Source of the DNA: Catajapyx aquilonaris
Lineage: Eukaryota
NCBI GenBank assembly: GCA_000934665.2
Contig: KZ538796.1
Span: 1 to 47,577 of the forward strand
Length of the DNA stretch: 47,577 bases
Direction: 5' to 3'
Within the stretch, counting starts at the first letter, position 1, and each line of letters begins with the position of its first letter. This document shows positions 1-46,170 of this stretch, in pieces. The notes below the pieces were generated by a model, which saw only the letters and a list, made by a program, of their open reading frames with translations, had not been told where the DNA came from and did no database searches. Both the position numbers and the translations under genes were made by a program.

Positions 1-2350
1 TCTACATGCATATTCATCAGTGGCTGCTCCAGCCTTTGCGCTAATTAGATATGAGTGACTTGCAATTCAAAAGTCTCTTTGAAGTTGAAATGTCTAATTA
101 GGTTTTGCTTCCCAAGTTGGAAGAAAGGAAGGGACGAAAAGGGGGGGAAGGAGGGGAAAGGGGGGGAGGGGAAGAAGAGAATCAAGGATGATCCCGGAAG
201 GCAATTGATTGATCCACACCTAATTTCCAGCCGCAAGGGATGGCTCGTATCACACTTCTAGAGTCTATTGCGGATGGCTTTTGTAGCAAGGCTAACGATA
301 ATGACCCCTTAGTAATGTCCCTTTCACTGTCCTCATTTGTTAAGGATGGTCGAATCAGAGGACAGGGTTTTTTTTTTGGAGCTTTTCTTAATCCTTGTTA
401 ATGAGTTGAGAACAAGGGTCTGATTAAGATCAACATGATGTTGGTAATCACAATTAGTATCATGCTGTGATGTAATAATGTGTCAAGAAATTTCGTCAAA
501 TTGGAGAATTTTAAATAAATTTTTAAATAATTTATTATACCACCAGAATGTAATTTTTCTATCAAAATTTGTCTCTAATTAACAAAATATTGACTGATCG
601 TTCTGAACCATGATGCCAAATTGCACGTGAAAATTTGAAATTTGAAATTTAATTTTTCAATAATTTACTATACCACCCCAGGATGTAAGTTTATGACAAA
701 ATATTGACTATGTTAAAATTTATTAACTCAATTTTGATTAAAATCAGATCGATTTGAATAATAATGCAATGATGTAATGTTTTATCAAATTTCGACCCAG
801 TGCGTGTTTGAATATTTCAAATACGGATTTTTTTTAAAAAATTATGCATTATACCACCATTCTATATGTATAATATTCCCTATGTTAAATATCTTAACTT
901 AATTTGATCATAATATGATGTTAAACTAGTTTCACAATAATTGGATACAACAGCTGCAGCTTGTAACCTATAAATCCTGCCCATAATATAATATTACAAT
1001 GTTGTTCATACAACTAATACACACCTCAATTTACCCCAAATTTAAACAACTCGTATGTTACATGTTATGACATGCATGGTCAAAATAACAAGCTAATAGC
1101 TATATTTCAAACATGAGTTACCTCATGTATTACAGTACACCATCATTTATATGCTGCGAATTCAACGGTCTGAAAGTTAAATTGCACTGTAACAAGCCTG
1201 TTGAGAACACTGTACTAGAAGTTGACTTTTTTACAGTGTTCGTGGCGAAGTTTGGTCTAAATGCATGAGTCTGCTTAAGTTCTTCTGTCGACTTTTGGTG
1301 TGCTCCGATCTCCTTCATCTGATCCCCTTAGGGAAAAGCATTTTCCGTGGGTCCCCTAGCTTCGCAAAAGAAGATAGATGATGTCGTACAAAATGTCTCA
1401 CTGTAAATTAAAACGGAAGGGACGTGAAACGGCGGTTAAAAATGGCGGGAAAAGTAACGGTCAAAAATGACGGGTAAAAGAAACGGTCAAAACAAGTTAC
1501 AAGTAGCTCCGCCTAACCAATGTACGTACAATGTTCCAAAATATGATTATGGCACACCATGTACTGGTTCTAGGAATAATATATGGTTGCATTAATTTGG
1601 TAGGATTTTGGCAGATCTACGAGCGGAGAATATTACAACATGTCGTTCATGCGCTATGAAATTAGACCCTTCCGGCAATTGGCTGGATTTCAAGATGGGT
1701 CGAAGGGTTGATGTATGGTCCAAGAAAATTGATCCTAGTCCGGGAGTTTTGTGGAGGTAAAAATGGCGTCCCCTGGTTATAAATCTTGCAAGATTGGAAA
1801 GTCTTGTGAAAGGTGAGGGAATAGCCTTCGTTTTTTTTTTTTTTTTGCTGCCCTCTGGTGAAATTCAGTAATCAAAATTGGAGTTACAGATTACTTGAGG
1901 TTGAGGCATTAAAGGTTTTAAAGTGGTCAAAGCATAGTTGCCAATATGTCAAGATCTGTTCTCCCAAAATATTTTTGTAACGTTTAAGAAATGTCTCTGC
2001 CATGCACATAAGTGATACATAAATAGTACTTGGAAAGTACATGTGTATTTTTAAGGATATGCTCTAATAGATATATCAATGTAGAAAGTGTCATTCCATT
2101 GTTAAGCTTTAAAAAGTATTTCTGAGATAGTTGTTATGGGACAAAATATTTTTGTAACGTCCAGGAAAAGTTTTTTAAACGTTTAGTAAACGCTGCCTGC
2201 AGATTTCGTTTCTTAATTGTAAAGTTTCGAATATTTTTGTAACGTTTAAGAATAGTTTGTCCCATAACAACGATTTCAAAAATACTTTTTGAAGCCTAAT
2301 AATGGGATGATACTTTCTAGTTTCTACATTGATATATCGATTTGAGCAAC

Positions 2351-2629
2351 ACATTTTTGTAACGTTTCTTACACAACTAAATATTTCTGTAACGTTTCTT
2401 ACACAACTAAATATTTCTGTAACGTTTCTTACACTACTAAATATTTCTGTAACGTTTCTTAAACTGCTAAATATTTCTGTAACGTTTCTTAAACTGCTAA
2501 ATATTTTTGTAACGTTTCTTACACTACAAAATATTTCTGTAACGTTTCTTACACTACTAAATATTTCTGTAACGTTTCTTACACTACTAAATATTTCTGT
2601 AACGTTTCTTAAACTACTAAATATTTCTG
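2351..2629. repeat. 30-bp minisatellite, ~9 copies (continues after the SINE to ~2935)
   Basis: Unit atatttctgtaacgtttcttacactactaa in exact 30-bp register. Confidence 0.97.
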
Positions 2630-2893
2630 ACCGAAGCAGGTTGGTGTAGGGGTTAAGCGTAAGGAGCCAGACTGCTAATCGGGAGACCCTGTGTTCGAAT
2701 GCCGGGGCCGGCGACCCTGACCGTGGTTTTCTGTGGTTTCCCACGGTCCCCCAGGATAATTCCGATGTCGTTTCCGTAAAAATAGGCCACAGCCACTTTT
2801 CCCTACCCTTGGTCCCATCCAATGGTGGTATTCCAACCCCCCTAATGGAGCGCAGTTCTCCCAAATGGGGTATAAATAAACAAAAATAAACTA
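2630..2893 (+). mobile_element. tRNA-derived SINE family 1 (tRNA-Ser(GCT)-like head)
   Basis: A-box tggtgtagggg, gactgctaatc anticodon-arm-like segment, B-box gttcgaat, A-rich tail. 14-bp TSD actaaatatttctg at 2616-2629 and 2894-2907. Second copy at 14179-14435. Confidence 0.9.
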
Positions 2894-4227
2894 ACTAAAT
2901 ATTTCTGTAACCTTTCTTAAACTACAAAATATTTTTTGTCCCATAAAAACGATTTCAAAAATTCTTTTTGAAGCTTTAGTAATTGGATGATATTTTGAAC
3001 ATTGACATCGATTTGAGTACCTCCTAAACAATACACATGTACCTTCAACGTACGTATACACATCATTTATGTGCATGACACTTCATCCAAAAATTTGAGC
3101 ACCATCAATTTCTCTATTCCCAGTCACCCTCTAGATTTTTACCGCCATCATAAGAATAGAAATACCCCCATTATTCCTCTACTACATACAATGAAGGATG
3201 ATGGAAACCAGCAGCGATTCATTTGCATGTAAAGCCCCGCCTTGTGAATCCCCCCTGCACCCAAGACGCTTTTCAACCTTAATTGGCATTTAGTTAAATC
3301 GATTGAACTCTCTGACTGACGTGGACGGATTAGTTCATTTGCCTGTCACTAGATGGAAGTACTTCGAACATGCCCCATTTTATTTTTTTTACTAGATTTT
3401 TTGGTGGATTTGTATGAAGCTATTTTTTGAGGGGGAGGGGGATGTTTGTGAACCTCGTAGTCATAGAATCGATCCAATTAGCTAGGGTGCACTCAAAGTA
3501 ATCACGCCGTAAAACAGTGCAGTCCGAAAGTGTGGTCACAATAACCCTGGCGACTACAGATTTTGCACCCGCTTTGAAACTACGGGCGTTAAATTACTTT
3601 CGCGTGCAGCGGTTTTGGGGCCTCACATAACTGGTAAGTACCGTAATTACTGCGCATTAAGTCAGCAATTAAGAGCCGAATTCATATCAGCACAAACAGA
3701 AAGATTTTACCCATCCTAGGACCCCCCCATCTTCTCCTTCTCGTTGCAAAGTGTTTCTTAGGCTATCTGGTGCCCACTATTTGCAAGGACTCAAGGGAAT
3801 AGTGCAAAGTTTGCATTTCCAGAGACGCATTTACACTTGGCCACCTTGCAGAAACGGTGTCTGGCTTCAAAATGACATTATTTCGGTCATCGCGACTCCT
3901 GTCAATATTTGCGCGCCGTTTTCATTTCGAGCTTGGTAAACAGGAGACATCAAAGTAATTTGATACCGAGCAGGAATTATTCAAAAACGGACTTATAAGC
4001 TTGCTAGAATCAGAGCAGGCAAATACTGGGGCTACGGTCGTTAAAAACGGCCGTTAAAAAGGTGGAGAAAAAACGACCGTTACAACATGGCCGTTACAAA
4101 ACGGCGGCTATAATATGACTGTTGAAAATGACAGTTACAATGCGACCGTTATTAACGACCGTTACATCATGACCGTTACAACATGACCGTTATTAACAAC
4201 CGTTACAACATGATCGTTATTAACGAC

Positions 4228-4517
4228 ATAAGGCGACACCGCGGCCGAGTGGTCAGCGCCGCAGCCTTTCATCTCTGAGGTCCCGTGTTCGATCCCCGGG
4301 TCGGACGGAGGATACTTATGTGGATAGACTTTTGATGGGTTCTCTCCATGTTTGCGTGGATTTTCTCGGGGTTCTTCCGTTTCCTCCCATTATGAAAAAT
4401 CCATCACAGCGCAGGTAATTATTAAAGTCGGGCATTTAAAAGATGACCCCAGACCCCCTAAGAGGCCCAAAGGAGGCCTATCACGGGGTATCCATTATTA
4501 TTATTATTATTATTATT
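4228..4517 (+). mobile_element. tRNA-derived SINE family 2 with V-domain-like core and (ATT)n tail
   Basis: A-box cggccgagtgg, B-box gttcgatcc. Core gttctctccatgtttgcgtggattttctcggggttcttccgtttcctcccat resembles the V-SINE domain (recall). 15-bp TSD atcgttattaacgac at 4213-4227 and 4518-4532. Confidence 0.9.
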
Positions 4518-4539
4518 ATCGTTATTAACGACCGTTACA

Positions 4540-4745
4540 CGAGGGTTTAGTCACTTATGCAGTCCTTCGTACACATAGACTGAAATATGGTTGCAACGTC
4601 CAGTTGGAAGTCCGACTGAATTCCAGACAAAGTTCTTAAAGTACGACTGAAGTGGATTATAAGCAGACGATAAGTCCTTGAAGTCGGATCGAAGTCCGTG
4701 AAGTCCGTCCTACGCTATAGATAGTGTCAAGTGACTACCCCCTCG
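4540..4745. mobile_element. MITE with C(A/G)AGGGGGTAGTCACT TIRs and 8-bp TSD (hAT or P-like)
   Basis: cgagggtttagtcactt ... aagtgactaccccctcg; flanks ccgttaca / ccattata. A decayed second copy lies at ~4831-5035 and a reverse-orientation relative at ~46749-47450. Confidence 0.75.
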
Positions 4746-6559
4746 CCATTATATGACCGTTAAAAACGACCGTTACAACATGACCGTTAAAAACGATCGT
4801 TATAATCTGGTAGTTTACAAACGACCGTTACAAGAGAAGTTAGTTACTTATGAAGTCCTTTGTACACCTAGATTAAGTCCGACGGGAGTCCGGACAAAGT
4901 TATTCTTATTAGAGTACGTCTGAAGCGGTGAAGCGGACTATAAGCGTATGATAATTCCTTGGAAGTCCCATCGAAGTCCGTGAAGTCCGTCGTACACTAT
5001 ATAGTGCGACAGACTCCACTGACTTCGACAGTCACATACTGTAAAGGTCGTTTTTAACGGTCATGTAGTAACGGTCGCTTTTAACTGTAATGTTGTAATG
5101 GTAGTTTTCAAAGGTCATGCTGTAACGGCGCGAGGTCACTTGACACTATACATGTCCATTTTTTAACGGTCATGTATAGTGCAATATTGGAACCGGCGTT
5201 TTCACACCCGTTACAATATGACGGTTGAAAAGGACCCAAAATGGGCCTCACAAAGGGCTTCACAATTACTTTTTCTTTTCCGGAAACGAATTAACATCCA
5301 ACCATATCAAATTTGGATTGTTGCATTTTCTATTCCACTCTTTTGTGTGGCAAAATGAAGCAATTTGCACACCCTGCACTGTTGGCAAAGGACGGCGTGA
5401 AAATCGGTAGTAATTGGTATCGAGAGGACAAAGGAAAAGTAGAATGAAAGAAGTGGATTGGTCAGTGACACGTCAAAACCTGTGTGTTTGCCCCCCTCCT
5501 ATTGGACTCCTCCCCCCAAATTTTGCAGGGGTTTTCCCCGGGCAGAGGCGGCCATATTGATTTTCCCATCTGAGAACACTAATTTTATGCTGTCATACTC
5601 GCTTCCGGCGAAACAAAGAAAGGGTCGGGATTGACTTTGACACGTTGCCAAATGATTTTCGACCTTCCCTTCCCCCCCCGCCTCTCCCCACCTCAGGGGC
5701 CCTTTGGCATTTGGCCTTACTATAGCCCCGAGTGTAAATGAGTTTCACGCCTCCTTACGGTTCCCTTTTCCCCCCCCCTGCTTTTTCCCTTTTGTGGAAT
5801 TTACTGAAAAAATATCAACGGATATAACGGCTAAATGCACACACAATGTTTGTCCATTACTAATTCACAGTTCGATTGTCACAGCCATTGTTGAAGTGGT
5901 TTAGAACTGCTTCCGGTAACGTTTCTGAATTTATGTTTATACAACTTTGTCTAACTGCAGTAAATCAAGTTTAATCTACAGCAAGCTTACACAAACTGTC
6001 GAACAAACGTATTTAAATTATCGCCTAGATTACAAAATTTCATCTAGCCACAAGCTACTGTTATACTTTTTTTTTAAAAAAAAGCAAAAAAAAACACTTT
6101 TAGGTTCAAATTGGCAGCCAGGCCTGGAGTTAATTTGGGTCGCCTTTACTTATAGCCATTGTGGTCCTCATGGACCCTTTAACAATCGGGCCTGGAAACA
6201 AGGAAGCGGTGCTTGCTAGTCTATTATAACCAACTAGATGTGCCTGCAGCAATTTAATAAGCTTTCCCACGCGCCGTAATTGAGGCTGTGCTAATGAGAT
6301 AACCGAGGCAAAAGGGAGCAGTACATTCATATCTTTGTTCTTTGTTGGAAGGCGATCGGGTGTTTATATGACGGTCAATAACGGTCTAAAATTTTCTTCC
6401 GAAAATTTCTCACTACTTTCGTTTTGCAGTAGTGTAATGGTAGCTCTAAAGCAAATTTTTGGTAGAATATATCATATGGCATGTTGGGACCGTTTCTCGA
6501 CCGTTTGACCGTTTGTCGACAATTGTTCTTAAGACGCTTAAGAGCAATATAATTTTTTT

Positions 6560-7937: not shown

Positions 7938-8102
7938 GCCGTTAGACCGTTAAAAACGACAGCTACAATATGACCGTTAAAAGGACAGTTACAATATGAC
8001 CGTTAAGAAGGACTGTTACAACATGACCATGAAAAAGGTCCGTTACAATATGATCGTTAAAAACGACTGTTGCAACATGACCGTTTAAAAACGACCGTTA
8101 CA
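7938..8102. repeat. GACCGTTA array type A
   Basis: atatgaccgttaaa/aacgaccgttacaac units as at 4034-4227. Confidence 0.85.
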
Positions 8103-9899: not shown

Positions 9900-10730
9900 T
9901 TTATAGCTTTGAAATCGGTAGGTGTGCCTGAATATTGTTTTATAGATTTTCTACTGCTTTAAAATCGGGTTTCATATAATTTCGATTAAACCTTGACCTT
10001 TGACATGTATGAAAATATTGACATTTGACCCGTATAAGTCTTGGAATCAGTAGTTTGTGTTCCTGAACATAGTTTTCAATATTTTCTTCTGATAAAAGGA
10101 GGGTTTTTCAAATTACGTGAAACCTTGACCTTTGACATGTATGAAAATATTGGCCTTTGACATGTATAGCCTTGGAAATAGGTAGTTTTGGTTCCTGGAT
10201 GTTGTTTTTTAGACTTTCTTCTGATTTATGTCAGTATTTCATATAATTCAGACTGACCTTTGACATGGATGAAAATATTGACATTTGACCTGTACAGCCT
10301 TGGAATCGGTAGTTTGTGTTCCTGAATAATCCGTCCTTAATTCGGACGGCTTTTGAAATTAGATTAAACCTTGACCTTTGACATGTACGAAAATATTGAC
10401 CTTTGACATGCACAGCCTTGAAAATATGTCGGTTTGGTTCCTAATGTTGTTTTCTAGATTTTCTCCTGATTTATGTCGGTTTTTCATATAATTCAGACTA
10501 ATCCTTGACCTTTGACATGTATGAAAATATTGGCCTTTGACCTGTACAGCCTTGGAGTCGGTAGTTTGTGTTCCTGAATAATCCGTCCTTAAATTGGACT
10601 GTTTTTCAAATTATTTTGCACCTTGACCTTTGACATGTATAAAAATATTGAAATTCCATCTGGATTATAACCTTGACCTGTATAAAAATATTGAAATTCC
10701 ATCTGGATTATAACCTTGACCTGTATTAAA
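9900..10730. repeat. Tandem repeat of ~118-134-bp monomers, ~6 copies, with ~250-bp dimer tendency
   Basis: ccttgacctttgacatgtatgaaaatattg at 9991, 10123, ~10251, 10369, 10503 and 10621; ends in a 43-bp duplication. Confidence 0.92.
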
Positions 10731-11053
10731 ATAATAAATTTTAAGCAATTAAACCAGCTTTAATAATTTGGCTGATAATCACCGGTTAACTTTGAAATTG
10801 TAGCATGTGCTCTACTGATGAGCTGTTATCTACCTAAGAAATGACGTTATTTTGAGCCCCTGTACTATGAAGGCCTATAAAGATAAAAGGAATCGAGGGA
10901 TAGATCATAATCGTCCTTACAAGACAAAGGCACTTACGGGAGAAACGCAATAAAAGGAAATAGTGCAATGGAACTTTGTGTTTCCTTAGGCAAAGGGGGA
11001 CTTATATGTTGAGAGATATGTATAAGTTAAATTTTTGGTGTTTTATCAAATTA

Positions 11054-11268: not shown

Positions 11269-11373
11269 TCGACACCTTCATACCATTCCTTAAGGGTCAG
11301 TACAATGGAAAAGGGATATTTTGGCGAAAAGTGCAAGATTAATAGCAATTCTTTTGCAATTTAAACTCCCATG

Positions 11374-12689: not shown

Positions 12690-12990
12690 CCCGTTCTTCG
12701 CACGGGAATTGACCGGTCTATTACCATGGCACCACTGATATTGTTGAATGCCATTGTTGCCATGGTATTGTGTTGACATTACTATGGAAACAATTAATCA
12801 GAAACAGTCAATCACTGTTGATGTCATAGAAACCCTGTTATGCTATAACTATTATGGTAGCTACGGTAACCCCGTTGACGTGGTAACCCATTACCATGGC
12901 AACTGGTTTCCATAGCAACTGTTGCCATGTCAACGGGTTACTAGGTTGCTATGGCTACGTGTTACAGTTGCCATGGTAACCGGTTGCAAC
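12690..12990. repeat. Cluster of GTTGCCATGGCAAC-like palindromes next to a Helitron-like hairpin
   Basis: About 10 variants, e.g. gttgccatggtaac 12967-12980, gtttccatagcaac, gttgccatgtcaac, gttgctatggctac; hairpin cccgttcttcgcacggg at 12690-12706. Confidence 0.75.
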
Positions 12991-13051
12991 AGTGACCTTT
13001 ACCTCCAAGAGAAGTGAAAATCATTCGCTGAAGTAATTTTTACATTGCCGT

Positions 13052-16468: not shown

Positions 16469-17451
16469 TTAATTTCCAGCACTTCGTGTCAGAAGCAATA
16501 TATCACGCTCGTTTAATTCAAAACATGATCGTACCCCCAGATATCCTGTCCATTTTTGCATGTAAATTAAAAGTGTCCCCAAATGGCCTGTGAATCCATT
16601 GCGGAGCTAGTGTCCACTAGGAGCTGTAAAACCCAACCTAGCATAATCCTGACATAAAGTCAAGCCGAGCATAAACATATCGAGTCTTGACGCGCATCCG
16701 CCACTTCCATCTGGTCCGCGTCCAAAAGCTTGGCTGGGTTTCCGCTGGCAAAATGGCAGACGCCAAGCACCCAAGATGAAGAGAAAGAGGTCACGGCTTG
16801 GTGATTAAGCGCGGTTCCAGCCAGTTGGCAGCAGCATATAACCACGACAAGCCCACTTAACGTCCTCCGCTTCCAAAATGTCTTCTTTTTTTTTTTGGTA
16901 GGATGGGTGGTGGTGTTGGGGGGGGGGGGGGGGNGCCATTTTCTTCCAACCCAACTCCCCCTTTTCGCATGCATTAGGCGGAGATATGTACTTCCGGGAC
17001 GAGGTTTTGAAATTCTGGAGGAGACTCGGGGCTAGAGTGTCTGTGTCAACTGACGCTTCCGCCATTTTGGTGGGGACAGAGGTCCAGGATGAATGTGGAT
17101 CTTGTGGGGTGAGCTGGATTGTTAGGTTCATTAGAATGCTTGAAACAATTGGAATTTTGTAGCAAGTTCAGCAAGAATTGATTGCATTAATCCAGATATA
17201 TTTATCGTCCTATACAGATGACCGTGGACTTGACAGTGAGGGGCGGGAACTAGGCCTTTTTTCGGTTATTCTCCCCCTTTTGGACAGTTATTCTTTTAAC
17301 ACTCTGCTTGGACTGACCAGTGACCAGAGGTGTCAATTTGTCGGTCCTAACGAGATGGTCAGGTAATACCTGGACACCACTGACTACCCTCTATGAGAAC
17401 TAATGCCGTGAAGAAATGTAGCCTATGTAGGGATAGGCTATATTCGCCCCC

Positions 17452-17969
17452 TTTTTGACCTTTTCCCTTGCCTTTTCCAGTCAAAAAGTCTGATAGAACT
17501 GCTCTGTCCGTCCGTCCATCCATCGGTGGACAGGTATCAGGGCCTAAAACTCAACAGCTAGCAACAAACGATTTTCAGATTCGGATTCAGCGGGCACTTT
17601 CATGGCTAACATCCGGTGAGCAGCTACTTGCGGTTTTCCGGGTTCACTCTATCCGCCATGGTCAAGTTTGCAGGCGGGTGGCCTTGGATTCCTTGGCAAC
17701 GGGAAATTGTCGGCTTCATTCCTCGCTGTCCAATGAGGAAAAGTATACTCGAATCACGCTCACGTAATTTGGCAATATTGTTTGACCGTTATTATCCCCT
17801 TTTTTGACCGTTATTCTCCCCCTTTGACAGTTATTCTCTCCCTCTGCGGAGCCATGACAACTGACTTGTATTCCTTGGCAACGGAAAATTGTTGTCCGCC
17901 TAATTTCTCGCTGTTCAATGAGAAAAAGTATACTCGAATCACGCTCACGTAATTTGGCAATCTTGTTTG
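17452..17969 (+). mobile_element. HINE/DINE-1-like element with duplicated 3' end
   Basis: aaaaagtctgatagaactgctctgtccgtccgtcc...; 3' gaaaagtatactcgaatcacgctcacgtaatttggcaat ends at ~17783 and is repeated at ~17865-17969. Confidence 0.78.
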
Positions 17970-34000: not shown

Positions 34001-37000
34001 CTGCTATGTTAGGATAACCATTGAACTGTACCTTCAATTGTTCCTAACAATTGTTTGCTGTTTTCTAAACATTCTAAACCTGAACCTGTTATAACGGTCA
34101 TTTTGATCAGAAACGGTTGTAACGGTCATTCTGATCAAAACAGTTATAACGGTCATTTTGAGTTTCTACTCACCGACGTAACTGCATTTTATAACCGGTA
34201 CAACCAGGGATGGAAAAAGAACCGCTTCTTTGGGAGGAAGCGGTTCTTTTTCCATCCCTGCACATGGAAAAAAGAAGCGCTTCTTGGAAGGAAGCGGTTC
34301 TTTTTCCATCCCTGGGTACAACGCTATTTCCGCGTTTTAAAGTAGCCTACGTATTATTTATATTTACCCTTAATAAGTGAAAATTAATAGTCTGGTAATA
34401 TCGCACAACGTTTGGGCAAGTTTCTTGGAATTCATAGTGAATTTAAAAATTAATATTTGTGACTCGGCAGGCTGATCATGTTTAGACCTGCTTGACGGTT
34501 ATAACGGTCATTTTGATGAAAAACAGTGATAACGGTCATTCTGATCAAAAACTGCATTAACGGTCATTTTGGGTTGCTACACACCGATGTAATTGTCATT
34601 TTATAACCGTTACAACGCTATTTACACGTTTTAAAATACTATTTACTCTTAATCATTGAAAATGAATAGTCATAATATCGCACAACTCTTGGGGAAGTCT
34701 CTTGGAATTCACAGGTATTTCAAAATTAATATTTGTGACTCGCCAGGCTGATCATGTTTAGACGTGCTCCACGGTTATAACAGTCATTTGGGCGAAAACC
34801 AGTTTTAACGCTCACTTTGCTCAAAACACGGTTATAACGGTTATAATGCTGTTTTATATGATGAATATTGAATGCAAGCATATTTTTTTGATGACATTGC
34901 CTGAGAAATTTCAAGGTGCATTTTCCTCGTGTGACATCTCCATTTCCCCCAGACAAAAATCATCGATCCGACTTTCTCATAACAACAGTCGTCAGAAATT
35001 CCTCTCGTGAGATTTCTTCTTGCAGGGGTCGCAAACCCAAGACTCCTCTGTCCTTGTGCACATTCCGATAATAGCAAAGCCTATTCTCCTTCCCTTCTCT
35101 CCCTTGCTGGGCCCTGGAGCTTTTCATGCCAATCAATTTCTCTTTGTTCTCCCACCTCCCACCCTCCTTCTTCCTTCCTCCCTACCTTCATAGCGCCTTC
35201 CTCATTCTTCCCTCATTCATTTCTCGTCCCCAGTGTCATTCACTTTGTATCCACCCTTCTTCCTATTATCTAGCACAAGCTGCTTCTCCAAAGTCGCGCA
35301 TAATGCTCATCTTCGTATGTCCCCCAACACCACAGATAATTTATTCAGGAGACTGCGGTATTGGAGGAAGGAAAGGGTGTAAGGCAGGAGTTGAAACGTA
35401 TCTTGGAATTCATAGTGTATTTCATAATTAATATTTGTTACTTGCCAGACTGATTATGTTTAGACCTGCCTGACGGTTATAACAGTTTATAACGACCCGT
35501 AACAGCCATTTTGATTTTTTTTAAACAATTTAACGACCATGATCAAAAATCGTTGAAACTAGTTAAAACGGCCATTTTGATCAAAGCTGGTTATAACTAT
35601 CATTTTGGGTCGCTACGAACTATTATAACGATCACTTTGCTGAAAAACCGTTATAACGGTCATTCCAATGGGGTAGTCACTCCTCAAAAAAGTGTACACC
35701 GGCTCTCTTGAGTTGCGGCTCACCAGCAGGCTCACCGATGCCTCAGAGAGCCGCAGAGAGCCGAGGAGAGCCAACTACGTCACAACCCGCGGGGTTGATG
35801 ATATGACGTCCTGATGACGTCAATATGACGTAGTTTTCGCTCGGCTCTCCGCGGCTGTCCCCGGCTCTCTGCGGCTCACCAGTGAGGGTGTACACCGGCT
35901 CTCCGAAGTGACTACCCCCTTGGGTCATTCTGATCAAAATCTGTTATAACCGCCATTTTCGATTGCTACCAATCGCTATAACGGTCATTTTTAACGTTAT
36001 AACGTTATATGGGCGATTTTTAATATTATTTGCTCTTACGCTAATCAACGAGAATGAGTAGGCCCTACTCATAACATGATGTTATGGGAAGTTGTGGGAT
36101 GTTATGACTATACTCATTTTCACTGATTAAGGGTAAATAATATTGAAAGTCTCGTAAACAGTGTTGTCAAGGTTAAAAGTGACCGTTATAACGGTTGCGA
36201 CGGACTCTTACAGTTAGTGACCAAAAATGACCGTTATGCCGTTTCTGATCAAAGATGGAGGACCTGTTTGGCCGTTGAAGCGGCCATTTTGATCGGAAAC
36301 GGCATAACGGTCATTTTTGGTCACTAAGAGTCCGTCGCAACCGTTATAACGGTCATTTTTAACCTTGACAACACTGTTTACGAGACTTTCAATATTATTT
36401 ACCCTTAATCAGTGAAAATGAGCATAGTCATAACATCCCACAACTTTTGTGAACGCCCAAAATTAAATTCCCAGGGCACCTTCGGGAACTTCAAAGCATT
36501 TGTGGTCCTCGGCATCGAGAGCGGTGTCCAAGGGAGACCTGGGAGCCCCAGCCCAATCCCAACCACCCCCAACCATTTCGGCCCGGAGTGCTGGCCCAAT
36601 TACGGCCAAACACTCGGTGCAAGTCGCTTTCAGACCTGAGGAAATGTCGGTAAATAGGACCTTCGCAAACAAACGGCCCTGGGCTAACCAATTGCAGATA
36701 CCCTTCAGAGGAACAGAAGTGGTTGTGGACAAGCATAACTGGGAACAAACAGCTGGTATCGGGAAGAACCGAAATTGGACCTGATTTTTGTGTCCAATCG
36801 CAGCTGTATGCTTCCAGAACGCGATTTTTGGTATTGGTTGAACATGTAGCAGGTTGAACGTTATAACGGTTTGTGATTAGAATGGCCGTTAGAACGGTTT
36901 TGATCAGAATGACCGTTAGAACTGTTTGATCAGAATGACCGTTAGAACTGTGATCAGAATGACCGTTAGAACTGTGATCAGAATGACCGTTAGAACGGTT

Positions 37001-40000
37001 TTTGATCAGAATGACCGTTTCACAGAACGCGGTTTTGGGTACTGGTTGAACAGGTAACAATTGAATGATATAACTGTTTTTGATCTGAATGACCGTTAGA
37101 ACGATTTTGATAAGAATGACCGTTTCACAAAACGCGGTTTTGGGTACTGGTTGAACAGGTAACAATTGAACGTTATAACGGTTTGTGATTAGAATGACCG
37201 TTACAACGGTTTTTGATCAGAATGACCGTTTCACAGAACGCGGTTTTGGGTACTAGTTGAACAGGTTACAATTGAACGTTATAACAGTTTTTGATCAGAA
37301 TGACCGTTACAACGGTATTTGATCAGAATGACCGTTATGACGATTGGTAATACGTACCTCAGAATGCTGGGCATGCACAGCTTGAAACCGCTCATCACTG
37401 CTGTAGGTCGTGAGTCCCACTGTGAGCAGGTGATAATCCTTACGTCGTATCCAAGACACCTGGAAGTACGCAACAAAAAAATCTTCAACCTTTGTCAAGA
37501 CTTCATATAACATGTCATATCCACGTGAAATGGAGCATGCAAGCCGAACATGGATTTTCTTTCTCCCACATGCAGTTGAAAAGGATTCAGTTGGCAGGGT
37601 AGGCATTCACCTCGTCGGCCTTTTCCATGTCCGAGTCAGTGAGCCGTCAGCTCGCCGGGGGTTTGGAGGAAGTTAGGGGGGAGAAGAGCTGTGGGGGCTG
37701 AGGGAGAAGAGAACCCTAGTGCTCCACGAGCATTGAAAAATCCATGGGAAATTGGATGTGCTGCGAGCCACTCCAATGATTACCACTACCATGTTGATTT
37801 TCATCTGCTCGCATTGTTGTGTTATGCTGTGCATATTTATTCTGACAATTTATGTGCCAGTATAAAATTCTGGGGCCCGAGAGCTAAGCTATACAAACAT
37901 ATAAATTGTTGAACCAACAGTACGTTGTATTATTGAATTACCGGACTGTTTCAATCTAGTTCTTTTTCTCTTTAAATTTAAACTAGAAAAACCCTCGATT
38001 TTACTAGTAAGGAACGGTTTCACCGAGCTCAGTATAAGGGTGTTAATCCTAAGCGTGTCACCAGAAAAAGAGGTGGTAGAGGGCGCAGGTGTGAGCATTT
38101 TTGCATAAGGAACTAGGGGTCGGAAACGCACCCTCACCGAGTCACTCCGCCGCGTGCCGCACGCCTCTTGCACACTGCCTGCCGCAAACTTGAAAGGGGC
38201 GTAACTCGGTGAGGGTGCGTTTCCCCTAGTTCCTTATGCAAAAATGCTCACACCTGCGCCCTCTACTACCACCTTTTCTGGTGACACGCTTAGGATTAAC
38301 AGCCTGTATTATAAATCCGAGTTTCTTTTCAAAAAATGGTCATGTTTCATTGTTGACAACAATGGTTGCTATGGCAATTTTTGTGTTTTAGACTTTTCCG
38401 AGAAAAAGTCTTATAGAATGGCTCTGTCTGTCTATCTGTCTGTCTGTGGACATGTATCAGACAGACAGACAGACAGACAGACAGAGCCGTGCTATAAGAC
38501 TTTTTTCAATTTTCGGGATCCGGGTTCACTCCTTCCGACCCTTCCCCTTGGCTGCCCCCTCCCCCACCACTCCCCAACCCTGACCGACCATTTGCCCCAG
38601 ACCGGCCATTTCCCCTGACCTCCCTGTACTGGGCAGAGAAGGGAGTGCAATTCTGCCCGGGCACGTCGGGTGAAAAACGGAAAAATACCTGACCAAGAGA
38701 AGGTGACGGGGACGGNNNNNNNNNNNNNNNNNNNNNNNNNNNNNNNNNNNCCCCCCCCAGCCGGGGCTAGTGGTTAGCGCGCTCGCCTCTAGACTCATAT
38801 GTGGGTTCGAACCCGGCCGAGGTCGGTGACTTTTCTTTGGGTGAGACTGCGCCTCCTTCGGAGGGGAAGTAAAGCAGTCGGTCCCGTGTGCTTGTGACAT
38901 TGCGCGAGTGCACGTTAAAGATCCCCAGAGTTGCCAAATGTCCAGGTGGAGGACCACCCCCTGCAGTCGGTGTTTAGCCTTAGCAGCAGACGTTAAGACT
39001 CACTGATAAGATCATCATGCCCCCCACACTGCAATTCTTGTTATAACCGAGGTTCTAAGTAGGGCTGGGCGATATTTCGATATATCGACTGTCGATACGA
39101 TATTTTCCTAATATCGAAGTTGCGATATCCGACGCTTGGCATGTTCGATGTATCGAATATCGCGATTTTTCGATGTCGGTTCGATGTCGGTTTGTCGGTT
39201 TTTCGATTTTTGATATATTGACTGTCGATACGATATTTTTCTAATATCGAAGTTGCGATATCCGACGCTTGGCATGTTCGATGTATCGAATATCGCGATT
39301 TTACGATGTCGGTTCGATGTCGGTTTTCGATATTTTTCGATGTCGGTTCGATGTCGGTTTGTCGGTTTTTCGATTTTCGATATATCGACTTCGATTCAAT
39401 ATTTTTTAAGTATCGAAAGTCGATATGTAATTTCGGATATCGCACAGCCCTAGTTCTAAGTTATACTGAGCTCGGTTTTGATAAATAAACCCCGGTTATT
39501 TCGGAAAATCCTTATTCTATTTACATAGATTTTCCGAAAGAACCGGGGTTTTATTAAAACCGGGCTCGGTATAACTGGCCCTAAATGTTCAAAAGTGCTG
39601 AGTATGGCCGATTAATTGATGGTGGTATAATAGGCATGTGACATTTTCCACGCTTATTGCCTTCCATTAGGCCGATTCTTATTCCTGGTTCGCTCATGGG
39701 CGGGGGGGGGGGGGGNGGGGGGGGGGGGGTCATAGTTGCACCCCTTCCAGAACATTGACCAGGAAGCTCGTAATCCGGAGAGTCCAGACCGGGGTCCAAT
39801 CCAGAGCGGAAGTCAACTCGATTCTGCCGACCAGAAAATGAGGATGGGAATTTATAGGGCAAGAGACGGGCTCCAGAGTAAGCCACGTCATGGCGAGCTA
39901 AGTCAGGTATAAAATCTGGGCCGATTTACTGGCCAGTTTTATTTGTTTGAAATTCTGCGAGGGGATTTGAGGGGAACGGCCTCATTGGTCTGGAAATATA

Positions 40001-43000
40001 GGTTTGCTATATGTAACTCAATTATGAGTGGTGATTTTTGCAAGGAAAGCAACGAATGATGTAATGACATTAGAGTTGAATCCGGATATAATAGACTTCA
40101 AGATACAGCGGAAATCAGTATGTTATAACCAAGGTCTGTTATAGCCGAATGCAAAAGCCACATATGGAAGTTTGCCGATACTGGCATTTCAAGTCCGTTA
40201 TAACCGAAGATCTGTTATATCCGAGGCTATTATACTCGGATTCAACTGTAACTTATATAATTTAATATGGATTTGTTAGAAATTGTAAGAAATTTATTTA
40301 TACTGCTGAATAGTTTAAAAACCTACACATTTTTGGAAAGTGGCCGTTATGTCCGTTATAAAATTTTTACGTCGCCCTTATTCTATCTTTGTACTATTTT
40401 TTTATTTTTTTATTTATTTTTCAACCCCGTGATAGGGCCTTGGTCCCTTTCAGGGGGCGGAGGTTCCCAAGGAAGGGCGCTCTTTCTAGTAGTAATTTCT
40501 GACCCTCTTAATGCCATACATTTTCACTTGGCCCTGGGCAAAGAAGGGAGTGCAAGTCTTCCCGGACATGTCGGGTGAAAATTGGATAAAGATCCGACTA
40601 TCCGGTTATTCTGTCACTCCTCACCCTTCACGCTGACTCCGAATACGAAAACCGTATGTCGTTATCTCATGTGGTTTAGGCTGTGATATTTGTTCACGGA
40701 CAGACAGACGTTCTGTGACCTTTCTTTTGAAGTATAGAAGTCAGTGAGAAACAATCAAGTTTTCAAGTTTACCTCCGGATTATTTTTTAAACAGTTTTAG
40801 AGTCTTTAAAGTAGAAATTACGAGGGGTTACCCACTCTGGTAATCTGATGTACACTTCGTTTGGTAATCCTGGTAATCATAAGTGTGTAATAATAGGAAA
40901 TATCTGGGTAATCATATGCGTAATCAGGGTAATCAGAGGAGTAATCGGGGTAATCAGGGTAATTATTAGGTGATAAAGGGTAATCGTAGGAGTAATCTGG
41001 GTAATCAGAGTAATCATAGATGTAATATGGGTAATCGTGATGCAATATGGGTAATCAGGGTAATCGTATAGATGTAATATGGGTAATCATAGATGTAATA
41101 TGGGTAATCATAGATGTAATATGAGTAATCATAGATGTAATATGAGTAATCATATGTAATAATAATAATAATAATATGGGTAATCATGATGACACTTTTA
41201 GGAGAGTGAATAACCTCTAGAAATTCATAACTCTACATTGTGATAAACCGTTAAACTTTATTCCTGCCACCACGAAGGTCTTAATGCCTCTGCCCAAGTC
41301 ACAGAGAGGTTTGAAACTCGTAAGTCCAGAGGGCGGTCTTTGGCCCATCTGGAAGAGGAGGATGTAATGAGCCAGCTCAGTCTCTTTAGGCCGGGATTAA
41401 GACAAGTGAGGCCCAAGTAAAGGGAAAAGCGTCTTGGTGTCTCACTGCGACTGTATGGGCTCAGCCTCAATTCTTTTCTCAGAGGGCGCCAGCTGAGGAT
41501 TCCGGTGCAAATCCCTGGAGTAAGGAAAATTCACTTCCGATTTGTGTTCACTGTATGTTCGGACATTTTGTAAAAAAAAGGGGGCGCCATTGTAGAGCAA
41601 CAGGCTGTGAAACACGGCTTGGGAGATAAGAACGGGTTTTAAGGGTTGAAATTCGCACTTTTGAGTGGGAACTGGTTGAGCAGGTGAAGCAGTTTGTGTT
41701 TGTAGAAAGTTTCTTTGATTAAAATGGCCAATATTTGTTACCACTGGAAGTAATCCTGCCTAAAAATGGTGATATATCGATATGTCGATATTCATGGGTG
41801 ACGTTCGGAACCTTCAAACTCCTCCCACCACTTCTTTTAACATGGCAATTTGCATTAGTACTTATTACAGTACCCACATCCTAACTTCTAAATAAAATAG
41901 GCATGTCCTGAATATGGCGACCTCTGTTACACGGTTTCAAAATATAATTATTTTTGTACCGCACTGTACCCACTAATCAGATCGCTTAAGCCTTAAGCTC
42001 CTTATAGGGTGTCTGGTCTCTTTTAAAAACTTTTTATCATTTAAAAAAGTATTATAGAACGCCTCTGTCCGTCCGTCAGTCTGTGGACAAATATCAGGGC
42101 CTAAACTGCAGGAAACAGCGACAAACGGTTTTTAGATTCGGATTCAGTTGATACTAAATATTATGTTTAATGGTCAACTTCCTGTGAACGGCCACTTCCG
42201 GTTTTCCGGATTCACTATCCGCCAAGGTCAAGTCTACACTGTATAATTTCTTGGTTGCTTGGCAATGAGAAACGAGGCTGACAACATTCGATGTCATTGT
42301 TGGCCAGTGAGAATCTCATCATATCGTACTATCGTATTCAACAAACTTGTCAGTCTCATTTCCCGCTGCACAATGAGAAAAAGTCTACTCGAATCGCCAA
42401 TCTCGTTTAAAATAATATTTGGCAGATTTTTTTAAAGAGAAACGCATTTGAATTTTTTAAGCAAATTCACACATTTTAACTAATTTTCACCAATTTATGT
42501 TGTATGTTATATTTGCTTACAACTGGCAGTACTCAGGCCATTTTTAAAAAAATGTAATGACGACGTATCGAGGGTATCGATAATGTCGATATTCATGGGC
42601 GACGTTCTGAACCGTAATTGGCTCACTTCTATGAACAGACAGCCGAACATGTGTACTTCATATACAGAATTGTGCTTTTGTATTCCAATAAACACTGCAA
42701 AAATTCCTCACGATTGATCTTTGCATATTTTATTTTACATGCGCCATAAATGTTCAATTCACATTAATTATAGCTCGTTTGCACCTATTTACAAGTTCAT
42801 TAATTTTTGATATAAATCTTTATGAAGTTGAATTACGCTGCTATGATTCAAACTTTGATTTTGGACATTAAAAGCGTGGCTGACATTCCTCTGACAACGC
42901 GTACAAATATTTAAAAATTGTGAGGCTCACCATTCCATCCCCGGCGTTTCTGACGACGCAAGGCAAGAGGGCGTTGCTGTTGACTTGTGACGTAATGACG

Positions 43001-43268
43001 CTGGAGTTATCCGTCTCAAAAGTGACAGCGGATGGATCTCTTGTGGTCTCAGGTTCGGCTTCATCCGCCGCCAACGGAAGGTGCAAGGTTGGTGAGAGAC
43101 CTCCGCTACCTGACACATAGTATGGTGAGAGGGATGATGAGGATGACGAAGAGGTTATGCTGGCTGGTGACGTGCTGATGGTGCCAGGTGACGCGCCTGA
43201 GGTTTTAGAGGGCACGTCGGTTGGGGATGCCCTTCTTTTGCGGATGACCGACAGCCCACAGGAAGGAT
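24853..43268 (-). CDS. dpr13: Dpr-family (defective proboscis extension response / zig-8-like) two-Ig-domain cell-surface protein, dpr13-like; 5 coding exons, 5' end incomplete
   Basis: Spliced join 43268-42931, 37459-37358, 31952-31844, 31478-31194, 25046-24853 = 1028 nt, open frame, all GT-AG, phases 1/0/0/1/1. Ig1 motifs LLPCVV, VSWIRRKDYHLLTVGLTTYSSDERF, DWTLQVKYVQPRDAGIYECQVSTHPP. Ig2 motifs LTCVL, VFWYHNERMINYD, DSGNYSCVPSN, then GENPAAMQH and a hydrophobic C-terminus. Family call is firm; dpr13 orthology is from recall and needs a tree. Confidence 0.93.
28576..29283. mobile_element. Foldback element with ~70-bp TIRs filled with gaccgtt/gacggtt/ggcggtt repeats
   Basis: aaaagtcagcacagaattgcttcttgggtctgttatgcatacaaccgccatccatccgtaatgtaacggtc pairs with gaccgttacatgacgggtggatggcggttgtgtgcattacagacccaagacgcaattctgtgctgactttt; related fragments at 25160-25255 and 26535-26710. 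Confidence 0.85.
30190..30760. repeat. Degenerate ~18-bp AT-rich minisatellite
   Basis: aaatgaaattttccatca / ttaaatgaaacttttcta-type units. Confidence 0.85.
31194..31478 (-). CDS. Dpr-like exon D (Ig2)
   Basis: tttccag|AG GCC...AAC G|gtaagt; 285 nt; EARAEILGSPDKYVKRGSALKLTCVLRQSTEPPQYVFWYHNERMINYD...DSGNYSCVPSNANPANIFVHILN. Confidence 0.95.
31651..31786. mobile_element. Pogo/Tigger-like MITE hairpin in the short Dpr intron
   Basis: tttgaaatgcagtaaaacctgtcaagttggacac is the perfect reverse complement of gtgtccaacttgacaggttttactgcatttcaaa. Confidence 0.88.
31844..31952 (-). CDS. Dpr-like exon C (Ig1 end); absent from the ORF track
   Basis: tttacag|GAC...GTA G|gtaagt; 109 nt; DWTLQVKYVQPRDAGIYECQVSTHPPQSIFVTLRVV. 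Confidence 0.95.
32000..32232. repeat. Short tandem/inverted array with taacggtca core
   Basis: ataacggtcataacggtcattctgaaggtacaaattttgtacca duplicated; outer inverted match aaataatcacaaaaataacggtcat / atgaccgttatttttgtgattattt. Confidence 0.8.
34205..34314. mobile_element. 110-bp hAT-type MITE made of two hairpins
   Basis: cagggatggaaaaagaaccgcttc...gaagcggttctttttccatccctg; TSD ggtacaac at 34197-34204 and 34315-34322; empty paralogous site at ~34601-34620. Confidence 0.92.
35666..35922. mobile_element. MITE with CAAGGGGGTAGTCACT TIRs and 8-bp TSD (hAT or P-like)
   Basis: caatggggtagtcact ... agtgactacccccttg; perfect TSD ggtcattc at 35658-35665 and 35923-35930; internal ggctc/gagcc repeats. 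Confidence 0.9.
36089..36446. repeat. Near-perfect long inverted repeat, ~165-bp arms with 25-bp spacer
   Basis: 36089-36258 versus 36284-36446, with few mismatches and small indels. Confidence 0.95.
37358..37459 (-). CDS. Dpr-like exon B (Ig1 middle)
   Basis: ttccag|GTG...GAG|gtacgt; 102 nt; VSWIRRKDYHLLTVGLTTYSSDERFQAVHAQHSE. Confidence 0.95.
38036..38306. mobile_element. Tc1/mariner-type MITE with ~105-bp TIRs
   Basis: agggtgttaatcctaagcgtgtcaccagaaaa...ccctcaccgagt versus actcggtgagggtgcg...ctggtgacacgcttaggattaacagcctg|TA. Confidence 0.92.
38386..38620 (+). mobile_element. HINE/DINE-1-like element, 5' part (same subfamily as 8742-9098)
   Basis: ttttagacttttccgagaaaaagtcttatag, (tctg)n, (agac)n, tataagactttttt, C-rich tract; colinear with the reverse complement of 8890-9098. 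Confidence 0.8.
38759..39018 (+). mobile_element. tRNA-derived SINE family 3 with Deu/Nin-domain-like core
   Basis: A-box gctagtggttagc, B-box ggttcgaacc. Core ccttcggaggggaagtaaagcagtcggtccc...gcacgttaaagatcccc resembles arthropod Deu/Nin-domain SINEs (recall). The 5' flank is an N gap, so the TSD cannot be tested. Confidence 0.75.
39060..39452. mobile_element. hAT-type MITE, CpG-rich (atcga repeats)
   Basis: tagggctgggcgatat ... atatcgcacagcccta; perfect 8-bp TSD gttctaag at 39052-39059 and 39453-39460; internal ~133-bp tandem duplication. Confidence 0.93.
39459..39581. mobile_element. Hairpin MITE, possibly PIF/Harbinger-like; left end disrupted
   Basis: agttatactgagctcggtttt...ggaaaatc versus gattttccgaaagaaccggggttttattaaaaccgggctcggtataact, ending ggccc|taa. 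Confidence 0.65.
40073..40248. mobile_element. Pogo/Tigger-like MITE
   Basis: TA|gagttgaatccggatataa ... ttatactcggattcaactg|TA; internal gttataacc repeats. Confidence 0.82.
40838..41190. repeat. Degenerate 9/12/21-bp gggtaatca minisatellite
   Basis: gggtaatca, gagtaatc and tatgggtaatcatagatgtaa units. Confidence 0.9.
42043..42409 (+). mobile_element. HINE/DINE-1-like element (same subfamily as 17452-17783)
   Basis: aaaaagtattatagaacgcctctgtccgtccgtc...agattcggattcag...caatgagaaaaagtctactcgaatc. Confidence 0.78.
42931..43268 (-). CDS. Dpr-like exon A: N-terminal S/T/P-rich linker and start of Ig1
   Basis: Acceptor gtttcag|AT (ct at 43269-43270), donor ATG|gtgagc. Translates xPSCGLSVIRKRRASPTDVPSK...TDNSSVITSQVNSNALLPCVVRNAGDGM. 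The acceptor position is less certain than the donor. Confidence 0.85.
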
Positions 43269-43317
43269 CTGAAACGATAACAATTGAAATGCTATAACAA
43301 TTGATGTCTGAATCGAG

Positions 43318-43410
43318 GGCGACACGGTGGCCGAATTGCTAAGGCCGCAGCCTTCCACCTCTAAGGTCCCGAGTTCGATCCCCGGATCGTACAGAGGATG
43401 CTTATGTGGA
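43318..43410 (+). mobile_element. SINE family 2, head-only fragment
   Basis: ggcgacacggtggccgaattgct...gagttcgatccccggatcgtacagaggatgcttatgtgga aligns with ~4232-4324. Confidence 0.85.
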
Positions 43411-43429
43411 ATTGTATGGAGGATAAACT

Positions 43430-46170
43430 GTTCTTTTCAAACCAAACTTTAAGAAAATAAGCGCGAAATCGCATTTTAAGATGTTTCATTCCAAATCAGT
43501 CAAGACCGTCATGACAGTTAGGAAACCCGTTTCCCATCTAATGCTCATGGTTTCAAACGAAACTTTAGAAAAATAAGTACGAAATCACATTTTAAGATTG
43601 ATCCAGAATAAGTTAGGAAAACCGTTAACCGACTTCTCAACTCTATGGCTCATTGTTTCAGATCAAATGTGGGAAAAACAAGCTCAGAATCACATTTTCA
43701 GCATATTCTAAATCAGTCAAGGCCGTTAGGAAAACAGTTAAACGACTTCTTCGCATTGTTTGAAACCAAACTTTGGAAAAACATGCGCAAAATCGTATTT
43801 TCAGCCTGTTCTAAAATTTGTCAAAACCGCTAGGACCGGTATGACAGTTAGAAAAACCGTTATTTTAGTCCCATCTGCTCCACGTCTCATTTTAACACCT
43901 CTACTATGTTTTTTGGTCAGTCCTTTGGATACATCATTTCAAGAGGTGATTTGGAGGTGATTCACTAACAAGGCTCCGAGTTACTTACTCACAGCTTGTT
44001 GACTTGTAACATTTATATTCGTTGCTAGTGGGTAAGTTACACCGACCTGGGGCAGGTATTCATTCATGACACACTGTACATGGTCCCACTTGGAATTCAT
44101 AATTCCATTATTTGCAGTGCAACTTCAATATTCATACACTGCATTGTAAATATTGTAATCATTTCATTACATACGTACATTCAAATTCTCAAAAAAAAAT
44201 CGATTCCAATTTTTTTTAACTTTAATATCCTTACGTCCTTTACAATCTTTTGACCTTGCCGTCTTTGGGAAGCTCCCAAGAAAAGTGGGAAAAGGAAATG
44301 AAATGTATATCAGTGAATAAAATTAGGCTCCGACGATATCGACCACGATGTAAAAAGAACCTCGTTTCTCGTTCCCGTATAAACTTTACCTCCGTCGTGA
44401 TAAGAAAGATTGGGTATTCGGAGAGTGGAGGTTGAATTTGCACGAACTTTCCTTGGATTTGCTTCGTGACGACCCCGAGGTGGCAAATGAAACTTTGCCT
44501 AGATCTTCCGCAAGTCAATTGCACAAGCCAAAATTCCCTAACCAAATTTCGCATGTTACCTGAGTAACAAGTTAATAAAAATATATTCTCTCACGTTTTT
44601 GGGGGGAAAAGAATAGGCTGGCCCAAAATGACGGTTAGAAAAACCCATTTTTGATCAGAATGACCGTTATAACCGTTTTTGATCAGAATGACCGTTATAA
44701 CCGTCTATTCTATCTTTGCCTCATAAATTAACCATAATGTCATAGTATTTTACTTATACGTGTTTCAAAACTAACTATAGAAAAATAAGTGTGAAGTCAC
44801 ATTTTCAGCCTGAGTTACGACCGTTAGAACCGTTAGTGAACGGTTAATTGCAACGAACTCTCGCAAAAATTAGTTCCATTATTGTAAATTAGCTTTATAA
44901 GGACCCTTAGTGTGTGGGTCGAGTGTGTGGAGAGCAATTGATACTGTTTCATCTAGTACTATAGTACCCATAACTAATGTGATTTCTAACTTGAATGTTT
45001 TAACCTTAATGTAAATTGCGTCGACATTAATTACTCCTTCCGCCTCTCCGATCCTTTTGAAAACAATGTAAATTTCATTTCCGGGCGTTGCCTGCCTAAT
45101 GGTACTGAAAAGGATAAAGTCGTTCACGTCCACTATTCCCCCACATTATTATGCAATGTGACCACAAAATAAACAATGCATTTTCGGAACTTGTATTCAT
45201 TCCGGGATACATGTAGCTTTCATTTGTAGCAAATTAAGCATGATTTGGTGGCCTATATTTAAATTTTTAATTTTGTGCCAGTTAGGACTACATGGCGATT
45301 GCGGGAATAACCTACTAGAATCAGGAATGAAAGGAAAAGCGACATTTGTTTTAAATTTTAAACTGTTGGAAAGTTCTGAAATTTAAATGATCCATAACTA
45401 GAATGTGAATGTACAGGTCACAGATTGTCATGACGATGACCGTTAACATATAACCTTGACGGAAATCATTACGTCCTCCTCACCCTTCAATTTTTGTACT
45501 ATGAATTAACATAATGTCATAGTGTTTTTCTCTATATGCTTCCAACCTAACTTTAGCAAAATAGGCCCGAAATCACATTTTTAGCCTGATCTAAACTAAA
45601 TATAGACCGTTATGACCGTTGGAGAACGTAACGATTTCCTAACGGCCATTTGTGATCAGGTTTTTCTCTCCAAAAATTGGATATGGAAATGAATGGAACT
45701 ATGAATCGTTTTAAAAAGTATAAAATTTATGAAAATAAATTCTCTCACATTTTTTTGAAAATAATAGGCTGACCAAAAATGACCTTTACGAAATCGTTAC
45801 GTCTTCATCCTTTTAATTTTGCACTACAAATCAACATAATGTCATAGCGTGTCATAGTATTTAGAATTTACCTGCCTCAACCTTCAGCTAAATATGCTTC
45901 AGCTGATCCAAAATCATTCAAGACCGTTATGACCGTTAGAAAATCGTTACTTCTTCACATTCTTTGTACTATAAACTCACATAATACCACAGTCCTTTGA
46001 ATTTACCTGCTTTAAACCTGTTTAAACCTAAATGTAGCAAAAATAAGCCAGAAATCATATTTTCAGCCTGATCCAAAATCATTCAAGACCGTTAGGACCG
46101 TTATGACCGTTAGGCAAACCGTTAGACGACTTCTCCCATCTGCACCACGTCTCATCTTCACCCCCTTTCT
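43430..46170. repeat. Dispersed blocks of a diverged repeat (aaactttagaaaaataag...aaatcacattttcagcc...agaccgttatgaccgttag)
   Basis: Blocks at 43430-43900, 44560-44860 and 45430-46170; two blocks end in cccatctgc(t/a)ccacgtctcat; unique spacers in between. Confidence 0.7.

Follow-up and report, generated by a model that had tools for sequence, protein, structure and literature searches.

Locus-private minisatellites sharing a CCGTTA core in the genome of Catajapyx aquilonaris

The core word and its arrays in the window

The stretch analysed here, referred to as the window, is a whole contig of 47,577 nucleotides from Catajapyx aquilonaris (KZ538796.1 of GCA_000934665.2; G000:C1523), taken from a 285.6-Mb assembly. 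Its minus strand carries two exons of an immunoglobulin (Ig)-domain gene of the dpr family, and the introns and flank of this gene hold arrays of one short core, GACCGTT. These arrays are locus-private minisatellites on the word (T/C)GACCGTT(A/G), of which CCGTTA is the fixed part. GACCGTT/AACGGTC occurred 92 times in the window (65 on the plus strand, 27 on the minus strand), against 4.6 expected from a dinucleotide model and 14.8 from a third-order model, making it the top-ranked 7-mer. Comparison DNA, 20 unselected 10-kb stretches of the genome, held 11 copies per 200 kb. The density of CCGTTA was 23.5 vs 1.85 per 10 kb, an enrichment in a repeat-rich region, and 39 copies of ATGACCGTTA lay within the window. 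Eight array types accounted for 87 of the 92 cores (A 18, B 5, C 17, D 7, E 25, F 9, G 2, and H 4); two of the remainder form a palindrome in an exon, and three are isolated. The first-pass annotation had reported one core recurring amid many flanks and periods; these counts bear it out, and its coordinates for the array types were correct.

The arrays differ widely in build. Type G (1425-1495, minus strand) has 13-bp units in which the core adjoins a GGCGGGAA word, which we take to be E2F-like. Type A comprises A1 (4034-4227, plus), A2 (plus) and A3 (minus) with partial local duplications of a miniature inverted-repeat transposable element (MITE; 4753-5230), and A4 (7938-8102, plus), with relatives on C1113, C4127, C331, and C3259. 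Its units had been described as 17-mers; they in fact alternate between 13 and 14 bp, giving a period of 27. Type H (6370-6520) is a small cluster of four cores. Type B (17200-18870, plus) consists of five spaced 100-130-bp units with 20-22-bp core repeats and adjoins an element with a GTCC microsatellite, presumably Helentron/HINE-like. Type C includes C1 (25160-25337, plus), which abuts a fragment of M1, a dispersed palindromic MITE, at 25258-25337, C2 (26530-26720, plus), and the foldback C3 (28546-29325), a locus-unique inverted duplication whose core arrays face each other. Type D (31975-32245) is a palindromic 79-bp higher-order unit found at this locus only. Type E (34070-37345) has 24-28-bp core repeats within locally duplicated 300-400-bp units, together with a 106-bp higher-order array and a 98% identical inverted duplication (36089-36446). 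Type F (43430-46140, plus) has spaced 110-170-bp units with 9-bp core doublets or triplets and one relative, on C8091. Types E and F, first listed as separate contexts, are partly one compound unit because array E4 (44620-44705) is embedded in F-like sequence. The strings first quoted for types B and F each occur exactly once (17803 and 45921), and the other copies are variants.

The two dpr-family exons lie at 31194-31478 and 42931-43268 (both minus); the latter is the upstream exon, with splice sites taken from the sequence, and a record of run X5, a run that leaves the arrays uncovered, ends at 43270. Named relatives of the gene come from insects and other hexapods, one of them labelled defective proboscis extension response. 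The downstream exon contains a perfect 22-bp palindrome of two cores (31301-31322), which arises from synonymous codon choices. The closest dpr exon paralogue, 70% identical, encodes nearly the same peptide with neither core. Five inverted core pairs of this kind occur in the genome, and the exonic one may have arisen by chance, by hairpin-templated correction, or by selection. The paralogue lies on C3259, which bears arrays with other spacers plus a type A-like array. Matches to the dpr exon fell on 17 contigs, and at least 3 of these 17 bear arrays, among the matches listed. Other array loci adjoin exons with leucine-rich repeats, a two-pore channel, a ligand-gated channel, and LDLa/Sushi exons. 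Judging from translations, we take further array loci to include DIP-like, neurexin-like, and PDZ genes.

Other short words form arrays here as well. GTAATC/GATTAC arrays lie at 24055-24255 and 40820-41220, with counterparts about 70% identical on C462 and C2208, making this a second motif-array family that accompanies the same loci. Arrays around GTTGCCATGGCAAC and TGACCTTTGAC words lie at 12894-12985 and 9902-10740; we assume these words to be RFX-like and nuclear-receptor-like, respectively. A search for structured RNA gave no Rfam match.

Clustering and copy status across the genome

Head-to-tail pairs of the form TGACCGTTA-N(1-25)-GACCGTTA occurred 112 times genome-wide, vs 6 for the reversed control. 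Among the matches listed, TGACCGTTA pairs lay on at least 30 contigs, with at least 16 pairs on the window contig. Pairs carrying one changed base inside CCGTTA numbered 2 (control 2), 4 (control 8), and 19 (control 17), and the excess was gone; with the change 5' of CCGTTA they numbered 36 (control 13) and 135 (control 48), and the excess remained. Inverted core pairs showed no genome excess (5 loci, 10 strand-counts vs 14 for the control). The fixed part is thus CCGTTA and the arrangement tandem, since changes inside the hexamer abolish the pair excess, changes 5' of it do not, and inverted pairs have none. Triples of CCGTTA numbered 373, against 56, 51, 66, 57, and 49 for five control hexamers. 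The type E 16-mer had three genome copies, all in the window. Cores fill a 10-15-kb patch on contigs C462 and C687, and C2208 and C4194 are rich in them from end to end. Read as a surplus of sites, the proposed genome-wide code is unsupported, single sites being as frequent as expected or rarer; what stands is a set of clusters with unrelated spacers on at least 30 contigs. Nor are most contexts dispersed families that kept the core, as had been suggested; they are locus-private minisatellites.

Spacers were compared across 72 runs from 32 sources. The median best identity was 0.73 within a run (55 runs) and 0.44 between sources, the level of unrelated sequence. Across runs the core profile was Y-GACCGTT-R, with periods of 7 to 40 bp, and many arrays mixed several spacers joined at the core. 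Direct matches between flanks, a mark of local duplication, were found for 27 of 77 clusters and inverted matches for 7 of 77, vs 1.5% of random pairs; by inspection, the inverted matches had no terminus in common. For most clusters the flanks had no homology to the other loci compared. Spacer homology between loci was likewise lacking, the exceptions being type A and the 9-bp core-only arrays, which lie on at least six other contigs in unrelated flanks. A genome search, with types B, G, and H outside it, gave lower bounds on dispersal: C3 and D on the window contig only, E on two contigs (with C4194), F on two (with C8091), and A on five. The outer end of the C3 foldback belonged to no genome family (10 vs 14 for the control). 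Type-by-type alignment with the core masked scored at most 25 across types and up to 76 within types B, E, and F; it has little power for short-spacer types, because types A and C scored only 12-28 within themselves. Overall, the growth of each array was by tandem duplication in place; its units meet in register at the core, and it contains several spacer types. The arrays then spread over kilobases via local direct and inverted duplication, with spacers differing from locus to locus.

Array bins without high-copy elements had a read depth of about 16-47x, and most bins with common MITEs or a short interspersed element (SINE) had 500-25,000x; these values, from contigs of three DNA runs on one sample that may be the source of the assembly, are depth and not copy number. 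The arrays are not an assembly artefact, because contigs of all three runs cover them, and types E and F showed allelic differences among these contigs. A collapsed high-copy repeat was rejected by the read depth of the arrays. A contaminant contig was also rejected, as the SINE and several MITEs are common to the window and other contigs, which places the window contig in this genome. A telomere-like repeat was likewise rejected, the longest pure 9-bp array seen having six units in an internal position. One small cluster (L128:2689-2790, G000:C48) has three cores interleaved with CCAAT boxes every 32 bp and followed by CCGGAAGT, an arrangement that resembles a cell-cycle-type promoter. A search bearing on a cell-cycle promoter reading of such small clusters found no Pfam match among 118 short open reading frames (ORFs).

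Transposons in and around the arrays

The window arrays contain four inserted elements, whose target duplications coincide with or adjoin cores. A high-copy SINE-like element (4228-4517, plus) lies in A1 with a 15-bp target duplication. A hAT-like MITE with a GAAGTCC interior (4540-4745) is inserted at a core that is overlapped by its 8-bp duplication, with 6 of 8 bases matching. In type E, a high-copy hAT-like MITE (34205-34314) lies in a core variant with an 8-bp target duplication, and another MITE (35666-35922) is inserted at a core whose 5' side is overlapped by the 8-bp duplication. A group of MITEs with 8-bp target-site duplications has related ends and differing interior arrays (GGACTTC, GGTACTCC, or GAGAGCC units); its members are the window elements at 4540-4745, 35666-35922, and 46730-47410, as well as L012:3480-4010 and L129:3009-3157. 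A further hAT-like MITE, with CGATAT arrays and very high read depth (39060-39452), also has an 8-bp target duplication. Outside these groups, loci L176-L181 carry a young 340-bp element with poor inverted ends, 8-9-bp target duplications, and about 40 near-identical copies.

The only target-site duplications seen were those flanking elements that had inserted into arrays, and the array-bearing units themselves had no definable ends. Terminal inverted repeats (TIRs) common to copies were seen only for the minority of arrays inside M1 or a hAT-like MITE. About six loci had arrays within or adjoining MITE ends, and most clustered sites were not within recognisable transposon copies. The earlier view that the contexts do not form one transposon consensus agrees with a self-BLAST, in which matches fell within types and no cross-type match reached 45 bp save between E and F. 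A single transposon consensus was rejected on this basis and on the 7 of 77 inverted flank matches; the arrays are not one transposon because they combine single-copy read depth with a lack of common termini. A CACTA origin was rejected as well, with at most one core and no array at each of six transposase loci. A composite of the Myb and E2F words was counted 55 times vs 33 for the control; it shows no real excess, because about 40 of the 55 belong to one unrelated dispersed element.

The main rival to a host factor is that transposon ends seeded the arrays. TAACGG would be a subterminal transposase-binding motif whose old, closely spaced copies were expanded by slippage while the element ends decayed, with no host factor involved. 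DNA transposons of this genome do bear TAACGG near their ends, so such ends could supply seeds. An apparently intact TIR transposon (L196:104-6400, G000:C7397) with an ORF of 1446 amino acids has paired TAACGG roughly 300 bp in from either end, and its many MITE derivatives also carry the pair in both ends; degenerate TTTCCGTTA arrays occur elsewhere. Its protein had 164 relatives, nearly all unnamed, was 47% identical to a widespread unnamed family, and gave only a weak DUF6589 match; the element is presumably Academ-like. Of four examined loci with TA-flanked MITEs, three have TAACGGTC within one of the two ends, and the C4822 array terminates in a module resembling the end of the 1446-amino-acid transposon. 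M1, with 61 genome matches, contributed 14 pieces to 458 kb of array loci vs 1 to 343 kb of other loci, a difference that large introns may explain, and on C514 and C768 a common array unit lies inside M1. On C1113 a type A array follows a hAT-like MITE end; the array unit seems part type A and part MITE interior, which is suggestive of hybrid formation at microhomology.

Other results speak against seeding by transposon ends. The transposon pair is TTTCCGTTA/GGTCCGTTA, and the flanks of its CCGTTA differ from those in TGACCGTTA. Spacer identity between loci is at the random level, inverted flank matches are few and without a common end, and the C3 end does not define a family. AACCT..TAACGGYC was not enriched (76 vs 103). 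A search of ORFs near arrays detected no transposase family in 148 of the 174 longest or in 118 shorter ones, and the CACTA transposase loci are core-poor. Carriage of arrays by two unrelated MITE families, which concerns a minority of arrays, points away from one transposase. On balance we regard transposon-end seeding as rather unlikely.

A putative Myb/Ovo-type reader

A table in PMC5950925 gives the plant MSA (Myb) motif as GACCGTT, and PMC11789646 describes CCGTTA as the Drosophila Ovo motif, with CNGTTA second, and as a word common to A-MYB. The core thus equals the MSA word and contains the Ovo/A-MYB hexamer, in keeping with the original match to a Myb-type site. Myb had been named as one possible reader; it would fit, and Ovo would fit equally well. 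Core variants were tallied once per source over 76 runs from 36 sources, at loci selected for exact cores. T5 and T6 together varied 10 times (6 and 4) vs 17 for A1 (p 0.0015 against 1:2). GTT was the least variable part of the core, and variation was concentrated outside it. The middle C was among the most variable positions, with C-to-A changes (10) slightly outnumbering CpG transitions (8). This is the pattern that a YAACNG/CNGTTA reader would be predicted to leave. The core is the sole thing common between loci, yet it is only mildly protected within arrays.

These observations are consistent with a host transcription factor of Myb/Ovo specificity that would bind the word. Counting in its favour as well are the restriction of clustering to CCGTTA, the unrelated spacers of different loci, the presence of arrays in two unrelated MITE families, and the location of the closest dpr paralogue on another contig rich in arrays with different spacers. 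Slippage or template switching would use the core as microhomology, and neighbouring sequence would be captured as a new spacer, as in Rsp-like/1.688 hybrids. Selection may keep duplications that multiply sites in large introns, or binding may make the sites prone to breakage and duplication. We give somewhat less than an even chance to such a putative factor, through selection or mutagenic binding, as the explanation for the favour this word enjoys. A bolder form would have the factor drive minisatellite birth at its own site: germline binding would make CCGTTA break or slip, more sites would result, and the feedback would create, over the introns of certain genes (two dpr paralogues, DIP-like, neurexin-like), domains that are several kilobases long, dense in the motif, and unrelated in their spacers, possibly marking those genes for germline or neuronal control. 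We consider this form distinctly unlikely. A Myb role in neuronal receptor expression is described in 10.1101/788265, and CCGTTA is enriched at ovarian piRNA (PIWI-interacting RNA) clusters (PMC11789646).

Several results weigh against a host factor. ATGACCGTTA occurred 430 times in the genome vs 701 for its reversed control, so single sites show no excess. A looser pair pattern gave 348 vs 353 for the reversed control, a result against enrichment, although the reversed word is probably frequent in repeats of other kinds. The triple test used five control hexamers only, so there may be further cores that are favoured; unselected DNA (200 kb) contained triples of 68 CpG hexamers and none of CCGTTA. 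The first-pass expectation that the core would be better conserved than its flanks held only weakly: in alignments to tandem-repeat consensuses, conservation was 0.895 for core vs 0.859 for spacer, the core exceeding the spacer in 25 of 39 arrays (one-sided p 0.054), and the core figure is inflated because loci were picked for exact cores. On C1522 (L029), the 10 kb around another dpr exon had 0 cores, and the putative link to neural genes is a lead only. To these is added the TAACGG near transposon ends described above.

A neutral founder with a self-renewing handle is an alternative in which one lineage spread by microhomology-mediated insertion, for example of circular DNA, keeping its core while spacers were replaced locally. 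Type A on five contigs, mostly without common flanks, the 9-bp core-only arrays in unrelated flanks, the hybrid-like unit on C1113, and the weak core-over-spacer conservation all agree with it, and Rsp-like repeats that invaded 1.688 clusters by microhomology provide a precedent (PMC7403614). However, three features are not predicted by a neutral founder: the lower variability of GTT relative to the equivalent A1, the excess of arrays in which the same hexamer has different 5' flanks, and the exact agreement of the core with the site of a known factor. We find this alternative improbable. A signal at the level of whole chromosomes, for example a pairing centre or dosage-compensation entry region, in which one or a few regions gather repeats with a common protein-binding core, is very improbable: the window contig, C2208, and C4194 are array-rich along most or all of their length, C4194 and C3259 have array types in common with the window, and C. 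elegans pairing centres combine short repeats, a TTGGC core, and zinc-finger readers (PMC7227075), but arrays lie on at least 30 contigs, often as 10-15-kb patches in gene-bearing ones (C462, C687), and concentration on one chromosome is unsupported because the contigs are unplaced.

Human minisatellites with a common core that PRDM9 destabilises are similar in that different repeats are united by one short protein-binding site. Among systems in which a host-factor word is multiplied, several Brassicaceae MITE families amplify E2F sites (Henaff et al. 2014, as cited in PMC5950925 and PMC7329337). The resemblance lies in a word multiplied within repeats, by more than one element family and with doubtful function for most copies; unlike those high-copy MITEs, which hold more than 70% of the E2F sites in transposable elements, most arrays here are locus-private, at single-copy depth, and without element ends. 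Caenorhabditis Helitrons likewise carry dense heat-shock-element clusters of more than 10 per kb (PMC6927752). Those sites are confined to annotated Helitrons, where HSF-1 binds them, whereas for most arrays here no carrier was found and any binding is putative. The same lack of a carrier separates most arrays from the germline promoters derived from MITEs (PMC9757741). The Ovo/A-MYB sites of piRNA genes and of piRNA clusters in the ovary share the hexamer, the CNGTTA tolerance, and enrichment in a repeat-rich region, but the enrichment there is about 2.5-fold at a cluster and no minisatellite arrays are reported, the main text nowhere using the word 'satellite', in contrast to the intronic tandem arrays here (PMC11789646). 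The 1.688/Rsp-like islands of the Drosophila X are also small arrays among genes, with local expansion and microhomology hybrids; they belong to two long-unit families homologous across loci, whereas only 6-9 bases are common here (PMC7403614). Pairing centres in C. elegans also bring different repeats together on one short protein-binding core; they lie at chromosome ends, while the present contigs are unplaced and the reader of their arrays is putative (PMC7227075). No description of a CCGTTA-core minisatellite was found in the literature searched, most subscription papers lying outside it.

Herein, our findings reveal a pattern that is real and sharper than first reported. Known multiplied host-factor sites ride in transposons; in this genome, dozens of minisatellites whose spacers are unrelated have come to hold the same site, and most of them lack a carrier. 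If transposon ends were causal, the arrays would trace an ordinary but well-resolved path from element ends to minisatellites. If a Myb/Ovo-type factor were causal, they would provide a directly testable case of a transcription factor shaping the birth or retention of tandem repeats, with natural replicates and with core vs spacer as controls.

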